A DNA stretch of 64,000 nt from Escherichia phage phAPEC8, in the sequence record NC_020079.1; one strand, 5' to 3'. Both the position numbers and the translations under genes were made by a program. This document shows, piece by piece, positions 4,871 to 20,845 of this stretch; within the stretch, counting starts at the first letter, position 1; each line of letters begins with the position of its first letter. The notes under the pieces are model-generated. The model was not told the origin of the DNA, ran no database searches, and saw only the letters and a list, made by a program, of their open reading frames with translations.

Positions 4871-5131
4871 TTACTCCGCAATTTGAGCCATGAGATCACG
4901 CAGTTCGGTAAAACCGCCTACGTATGTTACCTCCCCGTTCACTTCAGACAGAATTTGTGGAAATGTGCGTGGAGGAACTCCGGTAAGATCAACAACTGTT
5001 TTAGTCATTGATTCTAAATCATAGTCTTGATCAAGACTTAAATATTCAAACTGTTTATTGCGCATGGTTAATAGTTGTTTTGACATTTCACAAAATTGAC
5101 AGTTAGGTTTACCAAAAATTACAAATTCCAT
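4871..5131 (-). CDS. glutaredoxin-like protein (NrdC/NrdH type)
   Basis: CQFC redox motif near N-terminus, TFPQI and GGF motifs; adjacent to the nrd genes. Confidence 0.65.
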   Translation of the reverse strand: MEFVIFGKPNCQFCEMSKQLLTMRNKQFEYLSLDQDYDLESMTKTVVDLTGVPPRTFPQILSEVNGEVTYVGGFTELRDLMAQIAE

Positions 5132-5973
5132 TACCTCTCCTTATTAAGTAATACTGCTAAAGACTGTTCAATACCTTTATTTAAATCTGATTTTGTAAGA
5201 TAGTGACTGGTTACTAGTTGTGACTTCATCGGACGTGCTGCTGGAGCATTATAGGTTGAAGCTGATACCGCCGATATCTTAACAGGTTCTGGCATCTGTG
5301 TCAAGATCTTTTCCGCAAACTCCGCCCAAGAAATAAGATGGCTTCCTGCAAAATGGTAAGTCTTAACAGACCTTGACCAACCTGTTCTTAATACTTCAAA
5401 AATAGCTTCTGCTAAATCTGGAGCATATGTTGGACAAGAGAACTGATCAGCAACAATAATAAAATCACGTTGTCCATCATTATAGCGAGACAACATGGTT
5501 TTTAGAAAGTTATTTCCAAATTCGCTATATACCGAGGCTGTTCGAATAATATATGCATTTGGGTTAACTCCTCGCACCATTTTTTCACCAAGTTCTTTCG
5601 TATACCCATAATTGTTTATTGGGTTAGGTGTAGTATCTTCAAAAATAGGATGAGAATAATTAAAAATATAGTCTGTAGAAATATGCACAAAATCAATTTT
5701 AAGTTTGCTGCACACTGCCGCAATATTTGCAGGTCCATACGCATTAACAGCCAAAGCAGTAGCAAAATCATGTTCTGCTTTATCTACAGCCGTATAAGCG
5801 GCGCAATTAATAACACCATCTACATAATCTTCAATAATAGCGTTTCGCACAGCTTCAAAATTTGTAATATCTACACGTTCTTTAGGATAAATTAAAGATA
5901 CATTTGAAGGAGCCACTTTACGTAAAGCTTGTCCCAGTTGTCCATTACCGCCCAATACCAGATATGTTAGCAT
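5131..5973 (-). CDS. rmlD: dTDP-4-dehydrorhamnose reductase
   Basis: GGNGQLG Rossmann motif, NCAAYTAVDKAE, STDYIF, YGYTK motifs matching RmlD. Confidence 0.85.
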   Translation of the reverse strand: MLTYLVLGGNGQLGQALRKVAPSNVSLIYPKERVDITNFEAVRNAIIEDYVDGVINCAAYTAVDKAEHDFATALAVNAYGPANIAAVCSKLKIDFVHISTDYIFNYSHPIFEDTTPNPINNYGYTKELGEKMVRGVNPNAYIIRTASVYSEFGNNFLKTMLSRYNDGQRDFIIVADQFSCPTYAPDLAEAIFEVLRTGWSRSVKTYHFAGSHLISWAEFAEKILTQMPEPVKISAVSASTYNAPAARPMKSQLVTSHYLTKSDLNKGIEQSLAVLLNKER

Positions 5974-6533
5974 ACACCCTCGCTACGTAACTGTTGAAAA
6001 GATTTAGCCATTGCATCTTTTGTTGATAGAATAGGTTTAAAACCTTCGTCAAAAATCATATCGAAGCCCCAATCGATCCCTATATCAGGATCATCCCAAC
6101 GTAAACTTTGTTCACTAGAAGGGTCGTATGGAGTTGTGCATTTGTATTCAAAGATAGCATCCATACTCAAAACTATAAAACCATGAGCCAAACCAGGCGG
6201 AAGCCAAAACTGCGTATGGTGTCGTGCACGAAGAACAACACCGTCCCAAGCACCGTAAGTTGGACTATCTTTACGTAAATCTACAGCGAAATCCAATACT
6301 TCCCCACTTACACAACGAACTAGCTTACCTTGCGGGTTATTTGTTTGAAAGTGCATTCCTCGCAAAACACCGAAGTTTGATTTAGACATGTTATCTTGAA
6401 CGAAAGTTTGTCTACCAATAATATCTTCGTATTTTTGTTCATTATATGTTTCTAGAAAGAAACCACGATCATCTTTATAAACGTCTGGTTTGATAATTAC
6501 CGCACCTTCAATTTTTGTTTTTTCTACTTTCAT
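5967..6533 (-). CDS. rmlC: dTDP-4-dehydrorhamnose 3,5-epimerase
   Basis: Start moved to the internal ATG at 6533 ([26 protein letters not shown]..), giving an ATGA overlap with rmlA; the track ORF extends 40 codons further into rmlA. Confidence 0.8.
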
Positions 6534-7408
6534 TTTCTCTCCGCTAATTTGAGTAGGTATTGCCCGTACTCTGTTTTCTTCAGTGAGTTTCCATGATACA
6601 CCAAAGTCTCTAAAGAAATCCACCCTTTTTTGAAAGCAATTTCTTCCAAGCACGCAATCTTCAATCCTTGACAGTTCTCAATAGTCTGCACGAATTGACC
6701 AGCTTCCATCAGACTGGCGTGTGTTCCTGTGTCAAGCCAAGTAAATCCTCGTCCGAGAACTTCCACTTGTAACTTCCTGTCTTCTAGGTAGCTGCGATTG
6801 ATATCAGTGATCTCCAGTTCTCCACGCGCGGAAGGGGTTACTTCTAATGCACGTTGAATAACAGAGTTATCATAGAAATACAAACCTGTGACAGCATAAT
6901 CTGATTTAGGATTTTCAGGTTTCTCTTCAATAGAAATAGCTTGACGATTACTCCCAAATTCAACCACACCGAATCGTTCAGGATCTTTCACCAAATACCC
7001 GAAAATACAAGCTCCGCCCCAAACATCTACCATCTCACTGGCGTTAATCAGTAGTTTACCAAAGCTTTGTCCGAAGAATAGGTTGTCACCTAAAATAAGA
7101 GCAACAGAGTCTTCTCCGATAAAATCTTTACCTATGATGAAAGCTTCCGCAAGACCTCGTGGCTCGGATTGGATTGCGTAAGTGAGTTTTATCCCAAACA
7201 TAGACCCATCTCCGAGAAGATACTCAAAGTCTTCCTGATCACCTGGTGTGGTGATGATTAAAATATCCTTAATGTCAGCCAACATCAATACCGATAAAGG
7301 GTAGTAGATCATGGGTTTGTCATACACAGGGAGCAATTGCTTGCTCACACTGCGTGTTACCGGATGAAGGCGGGTTCCACTTCCTCCCGCCAAAATAATA
7401 CCTTTCAT
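6530..7408 (-). CDS. rmlA: glucose-1-phosphate thymidylyltransferase
   Basis: [19 protein letters not shown]-terminal nucleotidyltransferase signature; 292 aa. Confidence 0.9.
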
Positions 7409-7416
7409 AACCCTCC

Positions 7417-8409
7417 TTAAATTTTCTCACTCCACCATTGAGGGTTGTTTAAGTACCATTCAATCGTTGAGTAGAGATCTTGTTCAAATGTAGAGTTTGC
7501 ACTCCAGCCCAGTTCAGACTCTATCTTAGAAGGATTGATTTCATAACGCAAGTCATGTCCTTTACGATCTTCAACAAAAGTTATCAAGTTGGAAGAAGGG
7601 TAGGTTACTGCTTCTGGATGTACAGTATCCATATAGTCACAAACCATATAGATGATCTCCATATTGGTTTTGGGATTACGTGTTCCAACATTATACGTTT
7701 GACCTGGTTCTCCACCTGTTGCCACTTGAAGAATAGCTCGCGCATGATCCTCAACAAAAAGCCAGTCTCGCACCTGGTCGCCTTTACCATACACCGGAAT
7801 CTCTTTATTCGTCAAGATACTTGTGATGATTTTTGGGATCAGCTTTTCTGGATGTTGATAAGGCCCAAAGTTATTGGAGCAGTTGGTTATCACAACAGGC
7901 AAATCGTAGGTGCGGTGCCAAGCTTTCACAAGATGGTCAGATGCTGCCTTAGACGCACTGTACGGGCTTGAAGGGGCATAAGCTGTCTCTTCGGTAAAGG
8001 GAACGCCAGAGTCTGCCATATCGCCGTACACTTCGTCTGTGGAGACGTGTACGAACATCTTCAGTTTATTTTTTGGGAGGAGCCTTGCAGCTTCCAATAA
8101 ATTGTATGTACCGATAATATTGGAGTCGATGAAAACTCGTGGATTCTTGATAGAATTATCCACATGACTTTCTGCCGCTAAGTGAATGATGAAGTCAGGA
8201 TTGCACTCTACTACTAAACTTTTGACCTGGGTTTCGTTTGCCAAATCTGTCATGCTTAGTTTAACGTGAGTGATATCGCCTACATTCTCAATATCTGCTG
8301 CATAGCCCATCTTATCAACGACAAAAACTTCGTTATTAGGATCTTGACAAAGAGAGCGCACCACGGCACTCCCAATAAAACCAAGACCACCTGTTACCAG
8401 ATAGCGCAT
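7417..8409 (-). CDS. rmlB: dTDP-glucose 4,6-dehydratase
   Basis: [24 protein letters not shown] and YSASK motifs of SDR dehydratases; 330 aa. Confidence 0.9.
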
Positions 8410-8920: not shown

Positions 8921-9035
8921 AGACTACTACTCGTCCCTCACCATGACAATTCAGGCAAGGAAATGTTACCATAATTTCCACTTCCATCTGTCCAGTCCCA
9001 CCGCACACAGGACAAAAAATAAGTTTTTCAGCCAT
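8889..9035 (-). CDS. small zinc-ribbon protein (48 aa)
   Basis: Hand-translated: MAEKLIFCPVCGG...CLNCHGEG; two CxxC pairs; start overlaps the upstream stop (TAATG). Confidence 0.35.
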   Translation of the reverse strand: MAEKLIFCPVCGGTGQMEVEIMVTFPCLNCHGEGRVVVFEKEEVEDGE

Positions 9036-9244
9036 TATTCCTCCTTAATTATTTCAAACTTGGCAACACCATTTACAATAATATGACCACAAGACATAAC
9101 TCCTAGCCAAGGATCGCCGTTTTTCTTCAGGCGTTTACCGAATACATCACAAAAACCATTCTTCATTTCGGAGGCTTCATAAGAAGCCCCTTTATCAAAA
9201 ACGTCTTTGAATGTGTCGATTATACCAACACATCTCAAAATCAT
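9035..9244 (-). CDS. hypothetical protein (69 aa)
   Basis: ORF track. Confidence 0.4.
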   Translation of the reverse strand: MILRCVGIIDTFKDVFDKGASYEASEMKNGFCDVFGKRLKKNGDPWLGVMSCGHIIVNGVAKFEIIKEE

Positions 9245-10329
9245 TAGAAGTCAAGCTCCTCATCATCAGAGAGATCTTTGTTAGCTGAATTCAATTTGTA
9301 ATTAGTTAACTGAATCTCTTGGGCTGCTGACTGAATCAAATCAGGATTCAACCATTTTTCCATCCAAGCTAAAGGACTATGTTTAGGTGCTTTAAACTTG
9401 GCTTTCATTTTCAATCGACGATAAATAGGAGCAGCATTGAAATAAACCCACTGTTTAGACAATTCGGCGTTAAGACCTACAATAAAACGACCTTCACTAA
9501 ACAGGTAGTCACACCACTGTTCCTCTTGTTCAACAACAGTGTCGAGGATCAAAGTCAACTCTTCAATATTGTCTTCGTAAATTTTACGCCAAATTGGGTC
9601 ATGCATCAATGCATCAATTACAGCATAATCCATCTTAACATGCAAGATTTCATCTAGCATAATTTTCTGGATCAGTTTACAAGCCCCAACAAACAGTTGT
9701 TGTTCTGCCATAGCAAAAGTAGCAGAGAAGGAAGATATAAACTGAATACCTTCTAATCCAATCAGGGCTACCATCCCTTTAAGAATCAACAATCGAAGTT
9801 CATCGTTAGCTTCAATCAATCCTAGAGCATACTTATGACCAGCTTCTTCCAACTGACCCATGATATCAGCAATGATACCCATACGATTGAAAATTTTATC
9901 ATTAACCATAATCTGATTGATGACTTCAATTGGATCTGGAGTACATTGGCGGATTATTTCAGAATACGTTAACGCATGGAGAACTTCCATTTCACTCTGC
10001 TTCATCATCATAGCACAGGCTTCATTGTTACTCAAGAATGGAGAGAACAAAGTGATGATTGATTTTGCAAGAGAATCATTTTCCCATTGGAACGATAAGT
10101 TTTTAATCATAACGTCATAGTTGTTTTTAGAACAAGCTACGAAATCTTTACGTGTCTGATCCAGATTAACTTCGTTTTCATCCCAATCTTGTGCTTTTTG
10201 AAGTTTGTAGAGTTTGTGCATTTCTGGATAAGTTACGTTAACAGAATCAAAGATCCCTAATTGCTCCCCCAAAAATACTGGATATTTCCCTGTCTTGTAA
10301 ACTTCGTTGTGTAAATTAATTGCTGCCAT
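9244..10329 (-). CDS. nrdB: ribonucleotide reductase class Ia small subunit
   Basis: 361 aa, adjacent to nrdA; length and overall pattern fit the R2 ferritin-like subunit. Confidence 0.75.
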   Translation of the reverse strand: MAAINLHNEVYKTGKYPVFLGEQLGIFDSVNVTYPEMHKLYKLQKAQDWDENEVNLDQTRKDFVACSKNNYDVMIKNLSFQWENDSLAKSIITLFSPFLSNNEACAMMMKQSEMEVLHALTYSEIIRQCTPDPIEVINQIMVNDKIFNRMGIIADIMGQLEEAGHKYALGLIEANDELRLLILKGMVALIGLEGIQFISSFSATFAMAEQQLFVGACKLIQKIMLDEILHVKMDYAVIDALMHDPIWRKIYEDNIEELTLILDTVVEQEEQWCDYLFSEGRFIVGLNAELSKQWVYFNAAPIYRRLKMKAKFKAPKHSPLAWMEKWLNPDLIQSAAQEIQLTNYKLNSANKDLSDDEELDF

Positions 10330-10654
10330 TTAAATCCTCCACTATTTCACAAAAACCTCTTAAGCTTAAAATATCTTCTTCCTCAAAATCATTGCTCCGG
10401 TAGAAAGCTTCCAGTGCTTCCCATACGCTTCTACCAAGTATAACAGTCACTGTTTCTTCACTTCTTGCCCTTATTATTGCGTAAGCCGTGGCTTCTGGAT
10501 AAAAAGATTCCCAAATCTGCATGTTAGCTATTTCAAGACCGCCAAGATAATGGTGACACCAAGTAGGGGTAAAATCTTCAGGGCGAATCAACAGAGGCTT
10601 AAACCCAGGTCGGTAGATTGGGGTTACTCCAGGTAAAACTATAAGTGTGCTCAT
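10316..10654 (-). CDS. hypothetical protein between nrdB and nrdA
   Basis: Start moved to the ATG at 10654 with GAGGAGG RBS (track start 10723 would overlap the nrdA 3' end). Confidence 0.4.
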   Translation of the reverse strand: MSTLIVLPGVTPIYRPGFKPLLIRPEDFTPTWCHHYLGGLEIANMQIWESFYPEATAYAIIRARSEETVTVILGRSVWEALEAFYRSNDFEEEDILSLRGFCEIVEDLNGSN

Positions 10655-10694
10655 AATCCTCCTCAATAAAAAGGGGCTGAAGCCCCTAGTTTCA

Positions 10695-12935
10695 TCACAT
10701 TTTGCAAGCTTCACAACCACCATCAGAATCTTCTTGTGCTAAAGAGTCTGCTGATTTTGTTCTACTGTTAAGGTAATACAATGACTTGCCACCAAGTCTA
10801 GCAAAATTCAGAATAAACTGCATCTCAGCTTTCACTGATAAACGTCCACCTACCAATTTAGAATAATCTAGCCAAGAATCACAAGAAATTCCTTGGTCCG
10901 TAAACTTGGTAAAGATACCATACATTTCTGCAAGATCTTTAGCCGGAGTGTCCCAGGCAGACTGGTAGAACATTTTCAGTTTTTCATAGTCTGGAACAAT
11001 AAATAATACACTACCTTTCTGACTTTGTTTATACATAATAGTATCACGAACAGGATACAGAGAGTTAGTAGTATTGCTTACCAAACTGCTGGACTCATTA
11101 GGTGCAATAGCAGCCAAGACACTGTTACGGATACCACCTTGTTCAATGATTTCAGCACGTAAGCCTTCCCAGTCCATTTTAAGATCAAAATTACCGATAC
11201 TATCTACTGTTTTAGCATAAGTGTCAATTGGTAGCCAACCTTGAGGCCATTTGGTCTTATCGATCCATTCTGCATTACCTTTTTCCTTAGCCAGACGCAG
11301 AGAGGCTTTTGCCAACCAAAAGTAATGACGTTCTGCAAGTTCATGCATTAATTTTTTAGCATAAGCGTCTGAATAATTTACAAAATTACTTGCCAAATAA
11401 TGCGCTAAGTTTGTAATGCCTACACCAATAGATCTACGTGCTTTAGCAGTTATTTCGTTATGTTTAAATGGATAATCCATTGTTTCAATAACGTTGTCAA
11501 TTGTCAATACAGTGTAGTATGCAACATCCTCATATTCTTCAGGTAAGACACGACCAGCAACAATAGAAGATAAGAAGCATAAAGCCAATTCTTGATTTTC
11601 TGTATTCTCACCAGTAAAGAGATCCGGCATACTGTGGAAAGCTTTAGTTGGTAAGAAGATCTCTTGACACAGGTTTGATTGATACACCGTATCCAGGAAA
11701 GGTGTATGGTTGTTAACGTTGTCAGCAAAGAACATGTAAATACGTCCTGTTTCTGCACGTTGAACAATAATCTCTGTCAGAAGATCACGAGCCTTAACAA
11801 ATTTTTTCTTAATGCGACGACGGCTTACTTTGTCATAAACTGCATCAAACTCTTCTTCACTTTTATACAAAGCTTCATAAAGTTCAGGAGCATCATCACA
11901 ACTAACTAACATCCAATCTTCGTTTTTTGCTGCTCGACGCAAGAACGAACGGTTAACAACAATAGAATAATCCAGTTTGTCTACTCGTTTATCTATAGGT
12001 GTTGTTGGATTCTTCAGTCGAATCAGATCGTCGAAGTCTGGTTCAAGTATGGTAAAGGTAACTGTAGCACTACCTCCACGGCTTGCTTGCTTCGAAGCTC
12101 CAACACTATCTTCCATCCATTTCAGATACGGAAGAAGACCACCATGAATAATACGATTATTCTTAACACCTTGACCTGTGGCACGAGTTTGAAGATTAAC
12201 ACCAATACCTGCGTTATTCAACGTATACTCATGAGCTAAGTAATTAGCAATGGCTAAAGACTCTGCCGTATCGTCTGCACGGAACAAACAACAAGACGCA
12301 CTTCCTTTGATTGGAGTTCGTAGAGTTGTCAGATACGGCGATGGCAGATTAATCTTAAGATCGCTAACATAAGTATAAAGTTTTTTAATATCTTCTATAC
12401 GGCGTTCTTTTGGTTGGATCTCCATAACCTTCATTGCGATACCAATGAAAAGAAACTGTGGAGACTCATGCACCACATCGTTTACTGCATCTCGAATAAG
12501 ATATTTATCTACCATCTGACGTAAAACAGAATAACCATAAGTTAGATTTTTATTATGCTTTACAATCTTACCGATTTCTTTGATCTCTTCATCAGTATAA
12601 TCCATTTTAGCCCAATGTCCACGTTCTACCATATCATGATAAAAGGTATTCAGTGAAGGGATACTGTGGTATCCCCCATGAGCCTGTTTGTAAATCATAC
12701 CCAGAAGAAGTCTTCCTGCCATATCACTGTAAGCTTGTGTTTTCTTGTCAATACACGCTGCAATCATTGCTTTATGCAGATCACGTGTAGACACACCGTC
12801 ATAACACCGCTTCACAGCTTCTAATTCAATTTCAGACCAGTTTAGTTTACCTGCTGCAAATTCAGACCACTTGCGAAGTTTTTCTGGATTAAACTCCTCT
12901 GTCTTACCGTTAGATTTAGTTACAAAACGAATCAA
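10695..12935 (-). CDS. nrdA: ribonucleotide reductase class Ia large subunit
   Basis: 746 aa; N-terminal ATP-cone-like region, NLCQEIFLPT active-site motif, C-terminal redox pair ..GGCEACKM; TTG start with GGAGG RBS. Confidence 0.9.
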   Translation of the reverse strand: MIRFVTKSNGKTEEFNPEKLRKWSEFAAGKLNWSEIELEAVKRCYDGVSTRDLHKAMIAACIDKKTQAYSDMAGRLLLGMIYKQAHGGYHSIPSLNTFYHDMVERGHWAKMDYTDEEIKEIGKIVKHNKNLTYGYSVLRQMVDKYLIRDAVNDVVHESPQFLFIGIAMKVMEIQPKERRIEDIKKLYTYVSDLKINLPSPYLTTLRTPIKGSASCCLFRADDTAESLAIANYLAHEYTLNNAGIGVNLQTRATGQGVKNNRIIHGGLLPYLKWMEDSVGASKQASRGGSATVTFTILEPDFDDLIRLKNPTTPIDKRVDKLDYSIVVNRSFLRRAAKNEDWMLVSCDDAPELYEALYKSEEEFDAVYDKVSRRRIKKKFVKARDLLTEIIVQRAETGRIYMFFADNVNNHTPFLDTVYQSNLCQEIFLPTKAFHSMPDLFTGENTENQELALCFLSSIVAGRVLPEEYEDVAYYTVLTIDNVIETMDYPFKHNEITAKARRSIGVGITNLAHYLASNFVNYSDAYAKKLMHELAERHYFWLAKASLRLAKEKGNAEWIDKTKWPQGWLPIDTYAKTVDSIGNFDLKMDWEGLRAEIIEQGGIRNSVLAAIAPNESSSLVSNTTNSLYPVRDTIMYKQSQKGSVLFIVPDYEKLKMFYQSAWDTPAKDLAEMYGIFTKFTDQGISCDSWLDYSKLVGGRLSVKAEMQFILNFARLGGKSLYYLNSRTKSADSLAQEDSDGGCEACKM

Positions 12936-12951
12936 CTTCTCCTCCCTATTA

Positions 12952-13206
12952 TTAATGCATATTCAAAACATCTACATCATAACCGAACTTCATTTCATTA
13001 AAAAGTCCATTAGCATATAGAAAACCTTCAAAATGAGTTATGTCATCAAACCCTTTTGCTTTTGCTCGACGGTCTGCTTCTTGTCTTTTAGGAGATAAAC
13101 GTTTTGAAGTGTCTAGAATTACAGTTACATTACAACCAACAGTTTCATCAAAATAGACTTCGATTTCACAGCCTTCATATTTATTATCAGTCATTGTCCC
13201 TCTCAT
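12952..13206 (-). CDS. hypothetical protein (84 aa)
   Basis: ORF track. Confidence 0.4.
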   Translation of the reverse strand: MRGTMTDNKYEGCEIEVYFDETVGCNVTVILDTSKRLSPKRQEADRRAKAKGFDDITHFEGFLYANGLFNEMKFGYDVDVLNMH

Positions 13207-13613
13207 TGATTAGTATCATCTGCTTTCGCAGGATCATAAGAGTTACCGAAATCATCCATCTTAATATGTGACGCACCCCAACCTGTAAATTCTTCATCAC
13301 CAAAATGAAAAATATCATTTTCTTGATAGATTCGTTTAAAACCACAATTAGGTGAAACAGGGAAAGTGAAAAGCGTTGTATTTGAAAACACTACTCGCTT
13401 ATCGTTATTGCTTCGGATATTCACATTACGCTCAACAGAATAGTGTGAATCTTCAGCCATACCCAGCATTACAAGCGACGCTCTAATAACAGCATTTTGT
13501 TTCTCGTGTGGGATATTGCCATTGTGTTTATTTGATTCTAGTTTCCAGATAGGGGTAGACATTACAGTAGACATGCTTACGGTAGCCCAAGTTGTAGTAT
13601 TTACTAATGACAT
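13203..13613 (-). CDS. hypothetical protein
   Basis: ORF track; start moved to the ATG at 13613 with AAGGAG RBS. Confidence 0.4.
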   Translation of the reverse strand: MSLVNTTTWATVSMSTVMSTPIWKLESNKHNGNIPHEKQNAVIRASLVMLGMAEDSHYSVERNVNIRSNNDKRVVFSNTTLFTFPVSPNCGFKRIYQENDIFHFGDEEFTGWGASHIKMDDFGNSYDPAKADDTNQ

Positions 13614-13711
13614 ATTTTCTCCTTCATTTTGAATGGGAGGACTCACCTCCTCCCAGTATTGTGCTATATTATACTAAAACTAATACTAAAGTCAATAACT
13701 ATTTAAACAGA

Positions 13712-14710
13712 TCACCATTTAGTATGATTTGTTAAAAGTTGACGATGTTGAATCCAGCCTTTGAAATTGCCAGACCAAAACTTACCATTACGATCTACAT
13801 GGGTAATACCTGGTTCCCAAGAGTTAAAATCCCAAGGAGCATTGATAAACAAATCTTCAAAACAGTTCTCTCCATATTGTTCGCATGTTTCTTGAATTGG
13901 AGTGGCTTGATGTTCAAACGGAGAAGCATGAACCTTGCGCCCAGTCAGCAAACGACCATAGATATCTAAAGCTTTATCTTTAGTTGCATTTAAACGACGA
14001 TAGCTAACCTGTGCACAACATGAAGCTGAAATAGCTTTGGCTTCTTCCAAAGTAAGCACAACAACTTCTCCAGATTCATCTTGAACGTAGTATCCACCAA
14101 AAACAAAATGATCGTCACCTTCTGTGCCAATATTATCGTAGAAATGGTCTACATAAGGTGTGTGCCATTGCCCTGGTTTCAGCACTTCTGGTGTAGATCC
14201 TTCATACTCTTTGTGCATCTCTTTAGCCAAAGCTTCGATAGTAGGATCGGCTTCTTTGTCATCACGTAGCCACCAGAAATTTTCATATTCTGTTGCTGTC
14301 AGAACTGTTTTAATTCGTTGGAAAGGTTCCAGAAGACGGTTTGCAACTTGTTTGTGGTACCCTGCCAAAGAGAATTCTTCTGCAAAACGTGCTGCACTAA
14401 GCGCGGCAAGATCCCACCACTCTTGAGCAGTATAACCTGCATCAATAAGAGCGTCATGATCAACACCTTTATCCTGCATACCAGGTTGGTTAGCCCCAAA
14501 ACGATAAGGACGAGCAGGTTGATTTCGCACCATTTCAATCAGTGTTTTAACAGGTATAGCACGGCTAGAAGCAGCATTACGACTGAACAGGCGGTGAGTC
14601 ATCAATTCTGAATGAATAATACGTGGATATTCTAGTTCAAAAGTTACAATCTCTTTTCCGTCTTCAGTGATGGAATGCGCAATAATACTAGCCGAAATCT
14701 GTTTTGTCAT
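13712..14710 (-). CDS. ThyX-like (FAD-dependent thymidylate synthase family) protein with divergent motif
   Basis: THRLFSRNAASSR aligns with the ThyX RHRx7-8S motif (compare RHRIASYNELSGR), but the first Arg is replaced by Thr; 332 aa. Confidence 0.55.
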   Translation of the reverse strand: MTKQISASIIAHSITEDGKEIVTFELEYPRIIHSELMTHRLFSRNAASSRAIPVKTLIEMVRNQPARPYRFGANQPGMQDKGVDHDALIDAGYTAQEWWDLAALSAARFAEEFSLAGYHKQVANRLLEPFQRIKTVLTATEYENFWWLRDDKEADPTIEALAKEMHKEYEGSTPEVLKPGQWHTPYVDHFYDNIGTEGDDHFVFGGYYVQDESGEVVVLTLEEAKAISASCCAQVSYRRLNATKDKALDIYGRLLTGRKVHASPFEHQATPIQETCEQYGENCFEDLFINAPWDFNSWEPGITHVDRNGKFWSGNFKGWIQHRQLLTNHTKW

Positions 14711-14719
14711 TTTTTCTCC

Positions 14720-15328
14720 TTAGTTTTTAAAATTGTTCAAAGTGTTAAAAACATCCAAACATGTTAGCCACTGATCTTCTAAACCTGTGATCACAACATT
14801 TGGTTTTTTCTTTAGTTCTTCTAGATGGTTATCTTTATAAGGCGTATTAAAATATATTTTAACCACTTCATCTGGAAAATATAGTAGGTTATCAGACCTG
14901 TCATCTATTGCTATATCACAAGGCAATAAGTATTTTTCTTTCGTAGCAAAAAAGCCGTTACCAGATCCTTTGCTAAAATCAATCGTATCTAACGTTCTTA
15001 AAACATGCTTATGTTTAGAACTTAAGTGACCACCTTTTGTCACACTTGCGATCAAAAGATTGCTACCTTTCCTTGAAACATACTTTAAGAAATCTGGCAT
15101 ACCTGGAACAAAACCCATTGTATCATAGAGATGAGGATTATCCAGAAATCCGTAAGGATCTATATTGAACTCCTCCCTGAAACCAGGAAAGTAGTTGGTA
15201 AGATCATAGTCTGCATTTTTTGTGAATGTGTCTATCTTAACACCAAGTCCACTAATCTTATTCAACCATTCTAACCAAGCAACATCTAATGGAGCCACAA
15301 CTAAATCCCAATCACATACTATCTGCAT
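14720..15328 (-). CDS. putative HAD-family 5'(3')-deoxyribonucleotidase
   Basis: N-terminal DxDxV-type motif (CDWDLVV); position within the nucleotide-metabolism module. Confidence 0.4.
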   Translation of the reverse strand: MQIVCDWDLVVAPLDVAWLEWLNKISGLGVKIDTFTKNADYDLTNYFPGFREEFNIDPYGFLDNPHLYDTMGFVPGMPDFLKYVSRKGSNLLIASVTKGGHLSSKHKHVLRTLDTIDFSKGSGNGFFATKEKYLLPCDIAIDDRSDNLLYFPDEVVKIYFNTPYKDNHLEELKKKPNVVITGLEDQWLTCLDVFNTLNNFKN

Positions 15329-15364
15329 AAAACCTCCTCTCTCTTTTAGTATAGTTATCTTATA

Positions 15365-15940
15365 CTAACTTTCAATTTCCTGCAATAGGATTTTGACTAT
15401 TTGTTTGCGGCGTTTCGCTACTGTGCTTTCAGGTTCTATTTTACGCTTCTTCAACCAAGCTTTATCTTTCTTAGCTCTACACAAAGCTATTGCTTCTTTT
15501 TCAGCTTTCGCTTCTTCAAAAGATATACCTTGTTTATCTGCATAAGCAAGAATAGAGTTGCACAATTTACAAACCATTCGCAAATCTTCTTCTTTCACAT
15601 AGATCAAACGGAAAACAAAAAGGGGAATATCCTCAAAACATTGAAGTTGTTTTGCTGCGTGAATATGATCCACTTGGAAGTCTTTCATTCCTCCTCTGTG
15701 TCCACATATTTCGCACTCACAATTCCAAACTTGTTTTGGTTTTCCAGTTTTCTTGTCTATCATCACATTGCCGTCTTTATCTACACGATCAACTTTAAAA
15801 CGCCTTGCATTGATAACCTTAATTTTATTAGGGTGTCTCATCCATGCTTTTCTAAAACATCCCCTAAGATAAGTATAAAATTCAGCTTGTGTTTTCCAGG
15901 GTGTTCCTTCACCCCACATTATTTTTGGTTCACCTGCCAA
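15365..15940 (-). CDS. HNH endonuclease (free-standing, homing-type)
   Basis: CECEICGH...VDHIHA and downstream CKLCNS motifs typical of HNH zinc-finger nucleases. Confidence 0.5.
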   Translation of the reverse strand: MAGEPKIMWGEGTPWKTQAEFYTYLRGCFRKAWMRHPNKIKVINARRFKVDRVDKDGNVMIDKKTGKPKQVWNCECEICGHRGGMKDFQVDHIHAAKQLQCFEDIPLFVFRLIYVKEEDLRMVCKLCNSILAYADKQGISFEEAKAEKEAIALCRAKKDKAWLKKRKIEPESTVAKRRKQIVKILLQEIES

Positions 15941-16163
15941 TATTGCTCACCTTTTTAGCTGTATATTCCCCTGGTGGGATATTGTGTTTAAAAAACAAAA
16001 GGCGGTCTAACCCCGCCTTGCACATTGTTTCTGGAATAGTCAAAGTTAGTAAAAGTTTATCACCTTTTCGGTTGAATATTTTATAAACTTCTCCTGCTCC
16101 ATATTGTTTAGTATTGCTCGCCACTAATACGTTCCTTAAGTTGTTTAATAGCTTCGATTGCAT
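15930..16163 (-). CDS. hypothetical protein (77 aa)
   Basis: ORF track. Confidence 0.3.
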   Translation of the reverse strand: MQSKLLNNLRNVLVASNTKQYGAGEVYKIFNRKGDKLLLTLTIPETMCKAGLDRLLFFKHNIPPGEYTAKKVSNIGR

Positions 16164-20119: not shown

Positions 20120-20845
20120 TTACTTGTTAATAATACCTGCAATATTAGGTTTGACAAAGGTCGATGGTTTCATGATCTTACCTTTATCATCAAAGAACAC
20201 ATACACTTTCTGTTTTTCATTATAAACAGCATGAACACCAGTGTATGCCCCTTCTGGACGATTGGCATTTCGTTCTTCAATTGCAGCGCATTCTTGTGCA
20301 ATGGCTGAATCGATATCCGAAGTTTTCCAAGTTTTCAGCAACTGTTGTTTAGTTGGATACTTGGAATCATTACTTTTCAATACCTCTTTAATAACTTTCT
20401 TTTCTGGATATTTTGAACGGATTAGAGTGTCACGAGACATACGCATAATACCAGCAGCCATTAGTGCCATTTGAACTGGCTCTGTAAATGTTTGTTCCAA
20501 AGCATCAAAATCAGTATACACAGTTGGAGTAAAAACATCGCCTACAGCATAGTCCAAGAAATTCATCGTATGTTCTTCACCAAAGAACATGTAAGTCAGA
20601 TAACTGGATACTACAAAAATATCCGCTGCTGCATCCAAGAGTTCTACATGATCGTTTACTTTCGCGGCTGTTTCATACTCTTTAAGCTCTTCACGAACGA
20701 ACCCGATTTGGGACATAAATAACTCTTGAGTGAATTCAGGTTGTTCACCACCTCGTGCTTTGGCATTCCAATCAATTACGTGCTTTGCTGCATTTTTGAA
20801 AAATTCAGTATCGAATTTAATATCTTTAAAAAAATTCTCGATCAT
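20120..20845 (-). CDS. putative MazG-like nucleotide pyrophosphohydrolase
   Basis: FVREELKEYETA...ELLDAAADIFVV resembles the MazG EExxE...D helix pattern; weak. Confidence 0.3.
   Translation of the reverse strand: MIENFFKDIKFDTEFFKNAAKHVIDWNAKARGGEQPEFTQELFMSQIGFVREELKEYETAAKVNDHVELLDAAADIFVVSSYLTYMFFGEEHTMNFLDYAVGDVFTPTVYTDFDALEQTFTEPVQMALMAAGIMRMSRDTLIRSKYPEKKVIKEVLKSNDSKYPTKQQLLKTWKTSDIDSAIAQECAAIEERNANRPEGAYTGVHAVYNEKQKVYVFFDDKGKIMKPSTFVKPNIAGIINK

Follow-up and report, generated by a model that had tools for sequence, protein, structure and literature searches.

The long-form ThyX-like gene of Escherichia phage phAPEC8 probably encodes a working flavin-dependent thymidylate synthase, which would turn deoxyuridine monophosphate (dUMP) into deoxythymidine monophosphate (dTMP) despite a remodelled active-site motif that it shares with a large clade of phage proteins. 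The gene lies on the minus strand of the window analysed here, a 64,000-nucleotide stretch of sequence record NC_020079.1. The phage is a phAPEC8-like E. coli myovirus (Phapecoctavirus, Stephanstirmvirinae), and phages PNJ1809-36, ASO2A and UP17 are 99.9% identical to positions 13000-16000 of the window. The first arginine of the RHR motif of ThyX, Arg78 in Thermotoga maritima, is a threonine in the phage protein, and the distribution of basic residues nearby suggests that the charge of this arginine has been moved within the motif.

Membership of the protein in the ThyX superfamily is well documented by profiles. The ATG at 14710 is preceded by a strong AAGGAG Shine-Dalgarno sequence, and the 332 amino acids (aa) that follow have the ThyX fold and match Pfam Thy1 (PF02511) with 33.3 bits against a gathering cut-off of 24.8, and PHROG_85, 'thymidylate synthase', at 1e-107. 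The Thy1 match spans residues 22-174, equivalent to profile positions 59-190 of 191, and so takes in the collinear part only. A search of the PDB with the single sequence returns no chain at E<=10; a family profile built from 115 relatives was needed to reach T. maritima ThyX. Many records already annotate the gene as thymidylate synthase. It is the only gene of the thymidylate-synthase families in this phage, as tblastn of the window and of the rest of the genome of the relative ukendt detects neither ThyA nor a canonical ThyX elsewhere.

Codons ACT CAC CGC (14599-14591), read directly, encode T38-H39-R40, and residues 37-51 form the peptide MTHRLFSRNAASSRA. In the profile search of the PDB, tHrvfsrnaaSSR pairs with RHRIASYNELSGR of T. 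maritima ThyX, and hhalign returns the same register for the motif; with residue numbers checked against the exact TM0449 sequence, the equivalences are T38=R78, H39=H79, R40=R80, S48=S88, S49=G89 and R50=R90. Since three independent alignments agree that T38 is equivalent to R78, a threonine occupies the place of the first arginine of the motif, the canonical form of which is R78-H-R-x2-S-Y-N-E-x-S-G-R. An initial annotation, made from the sequence alone, had described a ThyX homolog longer than the typical enzyme with threonine in the substrate-binding arginine position, and each part of that description stands: the profiles confirm the homology, alignment to the family and to structures places the threonine as claimed, and 332 aa compare with about 220 aa. 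Measured against the ThyX signature R-H-R-x7-S (Myllykallio 2002, as cited in PMC2826268), the phage T-H-R-x7-S carries one mismatch, at the first Arg, and would pass the filter of Stern et al., which allows <=2 mismatches (PMC2826268). In canonical enzymes Arg78 makes a hydrogen bond to dUMP (PMC3498832) and faces N1/C2=O of the reduced flavin (PMC11940539).

The substitution extends far beyond phAPEC8. Searching protein clusters at 50% identity yields 4982 matches at E<=1e-3 and 1608 at E<=1e-30, and by tblastn 1033 phage records contain a homolog, with rV5-like, ICP1, Pbuna- and Pakpunavirus, N4-like and phiCbK-like phages among the carriers. The same MTHR..SSRA motif is present in Bas53, ICP1 gp193, N4-like PhAPEC7 gp31, phipa10 and PaP1 gp110. 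Conservation was counted over 362 full-length relatives (363 at some positions) and compared with 119 Thermotoga-type canonical sequences, all of which carry R78, H79, R80, E86, S88, R90 and Y91 (119/119 each). Thr38 is found in 125 of 130 members of a smaller set of relatives and in 354 of the 362. Only the His and the Ser of the R-H-R-x7-S signature are invariant across the clade, which has a signature of its own, T-H-x-x-x-S-[RK]-N-x-x-S-S-R-A: relative to canonical ThyX, R78 has become T, R80 is relaxed, and Y84, E86, G89 and Y91 have been replaced by R/K, A/S, S and A, respectively; canonical Q75 is an invariant Glu (E35). The last residue of the signature takes the place of Tyr91, the proposed general acid in carbinolamine breakdown (PMC8316439), which is Tyr in 119/119 canonical sequences vs Ala (Ala51) in 362/362 clade members. 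Among relatives of roughly 40% identity, variation is absent or almost so at about 40 positions, and nearly all residues that contact ligands belong to these. Arg-to-Thr is thus a signature ancestral to the clade, apparently compensated, and no local substitution. The initial annotation had taken it as a mark of altered specificity, a view that the near-invariance of Thr38 across a huge phage clade speaks against.

Where, then, could the missing charge come from? We find that 359 of the 362 members have a single basic residue among positions 37, 38 and 44: it is at 44 only in 350, at 38 only in 6 and at 37 only in 3, two members have two basic residues and one has none. Basic residues at 38 and at 44 tend to exclude each other (Fisher p=5e-10, with no correction for phylogeny). 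Canonical ThyX shows the reverse arrangement, with R78 in 119/119 and Y, F or I, never a basic residue, at position 84 in 119/119. The exceptional sequences share 37-56% identity with one another, and each has 50-78% identity to a member that shows the usual pattern; being nearer to standard members than to one another, they imply at least 3 independent moves to 38 and at least 3 to 37. In the structure model, which is of a monomer, residue 44 falls within a short strand (43-46) and faces the same way as A46 (=E86) and S48 (=S88), and in T. maritima ThyX E86 and S88 contact C2=O/N3/C4=O of the flavin (PMC11940539). This single-charge rule suggests that the charge of Arg78 was relocated to 44, or to 37/38, instead of vanishing. 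The covariation points to R/K44, or to K/R37/38, as its source, and we lean slightly towards R/K44 being the functional replacement of R78.

Another arginine was observed in the relocated part of the protein described below. Arg238 (13997-13999 in the window) aligns with T. maritima Asp32, two residues past a conserved Ser that contacts flavin adenine dinucleotide (FAD), and is clade-specific and near-invariant (355/363). One of the few relatives that lack it, P0241, is also the one in which R-H-R is restored and position 44 is not basic, so that Arg238 may take part in the charge rearrangement as well.

Residues for binding uracil, phosphate and cofactors are retained. Both arginines responsible for reading and activating uracil, R50 (=R90) and R149 (=R174), are invariant; their Mycobacterium tuberculosis counterparts R107 and R199 activate uracil N3/O4 (PMC8316439, PMC12004180). 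Phosphate-binding R125 (=R147) and N144 (=N169) are likewise invariant, and so are S236, H261, S263, E266 and H267, the counterparts of the FAD and folate contacts S30, H53, T55, E58 and H59 of T. maritima. The set S88/R90/R147/R174 is matched by aligned S48, R50, R125 and R149 in 361-363 of about 363 members, and R50, R125, R149, N144, H261 and S236 are present in 362-363 of 363. In addition, 17 of 150 representatives of clade clusters carry inteins (Intein_splicing with HNH, or LAGLIDADG) and reach 524-683 aa. These long members were considered as tandem ThyX proteins or informative fusions, which was ruled out, as they are intein-containing precursors. The inteins occupy five sites, after H33, after R40, at the S48/S49 junction, after R149-x-H151 and after H261, all of them inside invariant motifs. 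Inteins in such places are the usual mark of active sites of important enzymes, and of strong purifying selection.

The order of the segments differs from that of canonical ThyX. Both HMMER and hhalign return two significant, non-collinear matches to the T. maritima enzyme. The first is a core segment, which holds R125, N144 and R149; the second is a relocated segment equivalent to the canonical N-terminal helices (hhalign probability 81-92%, E from 7e-7 to 1e-5), in which 'ISASCCAQVSYR...HASPFEH' aligns with 'SAVRAARVSFD...HETPFEH'. The helices that bear H-x-[ST]-P-F-E-H thus sit near the C-terminus of the phage protein, and the FAD/folate residues, N-terminal to RHR in canonical ThyX, are found about 190-230 residues beyond the motif, on its C-terminal side. 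When the relocated segment is spliced before the core, the Pfam score rises from 33.3 to 39.2 bits and the match extends to profile positions 14-190; modelling a re-permuted construct for three-dimensional equivalence brought no gain. The extra length of the protein is due to this non-collinear layout. There are also additional conserved beta-rich elements (S13, WHxPY at 182-186, N315, Q321 and R323). A C-terminal G-W-I-Q-H-R was tried as a vestigial second W-F-R-H-R and is unsupported (hhalign best E 0.25, probability 0.2%).

Features of the ThyX-like gene and its neighbourhood (window positions), and conservation and intein carriers in the clade
Feature	Position	Strand	Basis
Long-form ThyX-like gene, putative flavin-dependent thymidylate synthase, 332 aa	13712..14710	-	open reading frame (ORF), ATG start
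Remodelled motif T38-H39-R40-L-F-S43-R44-N45-A-A-S48-S49-R50	14561..14599	-	direct reading; aligned to T. maritima ThyX 78-90
Arg44 codon CGT, candidate relocated substitute for canonical Arg78	14579..14581	-	covariation
Core segment, residues 20-174 = T. maritima ThyX 60-199	14189..14653	-	hhalign probability 86.5-90.7%, E about 1e-6; Pfam
Relocated segment, residues 226-271 = T. maritima N-terminal helices 20-63	13898..14035	-	HMMER; hhalign
NT5C-family 5'(3')-deoxyribonucleotidase-like gene	14720..15328	-	Pfam NT5C 27.2 bits vs cut-off 24.8
Class Ia ribonucleotide reductase alpha subunit (nrdA)	10695..12935	-	ORF; annotation of near-identical phAPEC8_ev052; Bas53 synteny
Ribonucleotide reductase beta subunit (nrdB)	9244..10329	-	ORF; relatives' annotation
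rmlD-rmlC-rmlA-rmlB, dTDP-rhamnose synthesis (dTDP, deoxythymidine diphosphate)	5131..8409	-	Pfam RmlD_sub_bind, NTP_transferase, GDP_Man_Dehyd; annotation
Glutaredoxin, end of thyX-nrdA-nrdB-grx module	4871..5131	-	Pfam Glutaredoxin 38.1 bits
H39 362/362; R40 337/362; S43 348/362; R/K44 352/362; N45 357/362; S48 361/362; S49 351/362; R50 362/362; A51 362/362			clade conservation
Intein carriers P0128, P0135, P0143, P0151, P0157, P0172, P0187, P0203, P0210, P0216, P0217, P0222, P0225, P0234, P0255, P0256, P0267	outside window

The gene is embedded in a module for deoxynucleotide synthesis. Directly upstream is an NT5C-like gene, the stop codon of which overlaps the Shine-Dalgarno region of the ThyX-like gene; the two are probably co-transcribed, and the overlap suggests a co-translated pair that could balance dUMP and dTMP pools. 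Downstream follow two small ORFs, nrdA, nrdB, then rmlBACD and glutaredoxin. In Vequintavirus Bas53 (JohannBauhin, BASEL; 9001-14506 of its locus) the same thyX-like-nrdA-nrdB-grx order is found without rml; rml therefore looks like an insertion peculiar to the phAPEC8-like lineage, separate from the ThyX system. Ribonucleotide reductase (RNR) genes accompany the ThyX-like gene in ICP1, phipa10 and PaP1. A deoxycytidine triphosphate (dCTP) deaminase gene is nearby in N4-like phages, and a deoxycytidine monophosphate (dCMP) deaminase gene in roseophages (PMC2784036) and PaP1 (PMC5377924).

Other genes and signals in and around this region were observed. In the close relative ukendt (NC_052661.1), four consecutive glycosyltransferase genes (145545-148689) adjoin the primase/helicase and DNA polymerase genes, and these could form, together with rmlBACD, a glycosylation pathway directed at the virion, a host glycan or DNA. 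Just upstream of the nucleotide-metabolism genes is a free-standing HNH endonuclease gene (15365-15940, minus strand), annotated so in relatives and possibly a homing endonuclease. The same early-gene cluster encodes a MazG/PRA-PH-like nucleoside triphosphate pyrophosphohydrolase (20120-20845, minus strand; Pfam PRA-PH 28.2 bits), another candidate editor of the deoxynucleoside triphosphate (dNTP) pool. GC skew and AT skew flip sign near 26 kb; ORFs below this point are on the minus strand, and above it the skew is positive, consistent with a point of divergence between two transcription or replication blocks.

Taken as a working synthase of the long-form clade, the enzyme would carry out the reaction dUMP + methylenetetrahydrofolate + reduced nicotinamide adenine dinucleotide phosphate (NADPH) -> dTMP, with Arg/Lys44 supplying to flavin N1/C2=O and to dUMP the charge that Arg78 gives in canonical ThyX. 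Together with the adjacent RNR, glutaredoxin and deoxyribonucleotidase it would boost and balance deoxythymidine triphosphate for phage DNA replication, and in the phAPEC8-like lineage dTMP may incidentally feed dTDP-rhamnose synthesis. Two published observations on relatives bear on this reading. BASEL Vequintavirinae and their relatives share this enzyme and are described as 'exceptionally susceptible' to restriction (PMC8594841), which argues against bulk hypermodification of thymidine. During PaP1 infection free thymidine rises and the gene for gp110, which is 49% identical to the phAPEC8 protein and has the same motif, is highly expressed (PMC5377924).

Several points weigh against a synthase of the ordinary kind. 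The protein scores 31.1 bits against the NCBIfam thyX equivalog TIGR02170, far below the cut-off of 87.9. The host already has ThyA, and a phage dTMP synthase is not strictly needed. Residues deemed mechanistically important in canonical ThyX are gone, namely Y91 (invariant Ala) and the two that form hydrogen bonds with dUMP, R78 and R80, and since they are not kept, chemistry identical to that of canonical ThyX is an assumption. The literature searched yields no enzyme assay, crystal structure or thyA complementation for the clade. The PaP1 thymidine rise is correlative only; the covariation statistic ignores phylogeny and depends on about 10 exceptional sequences; and the putative relocation from R78 to R44 is drawn from covariation and strand geometry only.

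Does the remodelled site make another product? The initial annotation had proposed a modified pyrimidine connected with the nearby rml operon, and a neofunctionalised ThyX homolog of this kind would agree with an active site changed at R78T, Y91A and E86A, where loss of Y91 and of the flavin-N1 Arg could alter the fate of intermediates (PMC8316439, PMC11940539). Its setting, with rmlBACD about 5 kb away, the ukendt glycosyltransferase genes beside replication genes and the NT5C-like deoxyribonucleotidase gene directly upstream, would suit it as well. Nucleotidases accompany base replacement in some phages. In one version, water would trap the exocyclic-methylene intermediate to give 5-hydroxymethyl-dUMP, which would then be decorated via the rml and glycosyltransferase products. 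Yet the motif occurs in >1000 phage genomes, and no rml genes are present at the inspected loci of five other lineages (N4-like, ICP1, Pakpunavirus phipa10, PaP1 and Bas53), so that the connection with rml falls away. The restriction sensitivity of Vequintavirinae and relatives, cited above, holds despite the 'putative dTDP glycosylation machinery' of phi92-like phages (PMC8594841), and it is normal thymidine that rises in PaP1 infection (PMC5377924). Known hypermodification of thymidine begins with a ThyA-family hydroxymethylase, a 5-hydroxymethyldeoxyuridine (5-hmdU) DNA kinase and aGPT-Pplase (PMC8989533); here no ThyA is detected by tblastn, and a non-rigorous check of relatives' annotations shows neither the kinase nor aGPT-Pplase. 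The invariant R50, R149 and R125, which read uracil and phosphate, and the basic charge retained at 44/37/38 speak for a conserved function. We consider a modified pyrimidine product quite improbable and altered chemistry unlikely; that an enzyme without Arg78 and Tyr91 releases an intercepted intermediate, e.g. 5-hydroxymethyl-dUMP, for decoration with dTDP-rhamnose by the four glycosyltransferases is highly doubtful, although if true it would be the first ThyX-fold enzyme to feed a DNA-modification pathway.

A methylase for another substrate, be it UMP (like PolB of polyoxin synthesis), dCMP or uracil within a polynucleotide, is very improbable. The residues at the Watson-Crick edge of uracil (R50, R149) and at the phosphate (R125) are invariant, which speaks for a nucleoside monophosphate as substrate and against cytosine. 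The setting (RNR, glutaredoxin, deoxycytidine deaminases) is one of deoxynucleotide synthesis, and a lytic phage would have no use for a pathway to nucleoside antibiotics. That the protein is a catalytically dead relic, kept because it has a structural or regulatory part to play, for instance in nucleating a dNTP-synthesis complex, would fit the absence of canonical R78, Y91 and E86, the score below the TIGR02170 cut-off and a host ThyA that could supply dTMP, but is extremely improbable in view of the near-invariant positions that include nearly all ligand contacts, the inteins at five sites in motifs and the single-charge rule, which is hard to explain without catalysis.

If the phAPEC8 protein is indeed a dTMP synthase, the gene itself is an ordinary phage auxiliary gene, and more is gained from the clade. 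Thousands of sequence clusters and >1000 sequenced phages belong to it, among them the models N4, ICP1, PB1/PaP1-like phages and rV5. It dispenses with Arg78, Arg80 and Tyr91, residues regarded in ThyX enzymology as conserved or important for the mechanism. The clade is thereby a natural series of 'mutants' for work on ThyX mechanism and inhibitors, testing which residues are essential. As to annotation, the RHRx7S signature and the TIGR02170 equivalog overlook a major branch of ThyX. The literature searched holds nothing relevant on a characterised or 'permuted' phage ThyX, and no description of the remodelled motif, the one-charge rule or the non-collinear order.

Among known systems the closest comparison is with canonical ThyX (T. 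maritima TM0449, PDB 1kq4/4gt9; M. tuberculosis Rv2754c; PBCV-1 A674R). These enzymes have about 220 aa, form homotetramers in which the subunits share active sites, and are collinear, whereas the phage protein, at 332 aa, presents the equivalent of T. maritima residues 60-199 first and of 20-63 afterwards. It differs from them by R78->T, a variable R80, Y84->R/K, Q75->E, E86->A/S, G89->S and Y91->A, and has as extras S13, W-H183-x-P185-Y, N315 and Q321-x-R323. PolB, the UMP/dUMP C5-methylase of Streptomyces cacaoi (PDB 4p5a), is a neofunctionalised paralog of ThyX that remains collinear (E 3.7e-34 to T. maritima ThyX) and is encoded in an antibiotic gene cluster; the phage protein shows neither such close paralogy, with its lack of single-sequence matches in the PDB, nor a nucleoside-antibiotic cluster, its gene being part of a dNTP-synthesis module. 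The ThyA-family hydroxymethylases (T4 gp42, SPO1 gp29 and the first step of M6/ViI thymidine hypermodification) are also phage enzymes that transfer one carbon to C5 of a pyrimidine deoxynucleoside monophosphate. Their fold is unrelated to that of ThyX, and they come with a 5-hmdU DNA kinase and aGPT-Pplase, or with hydroxymethylcytosine glucosyltransferases (PMC8989533).
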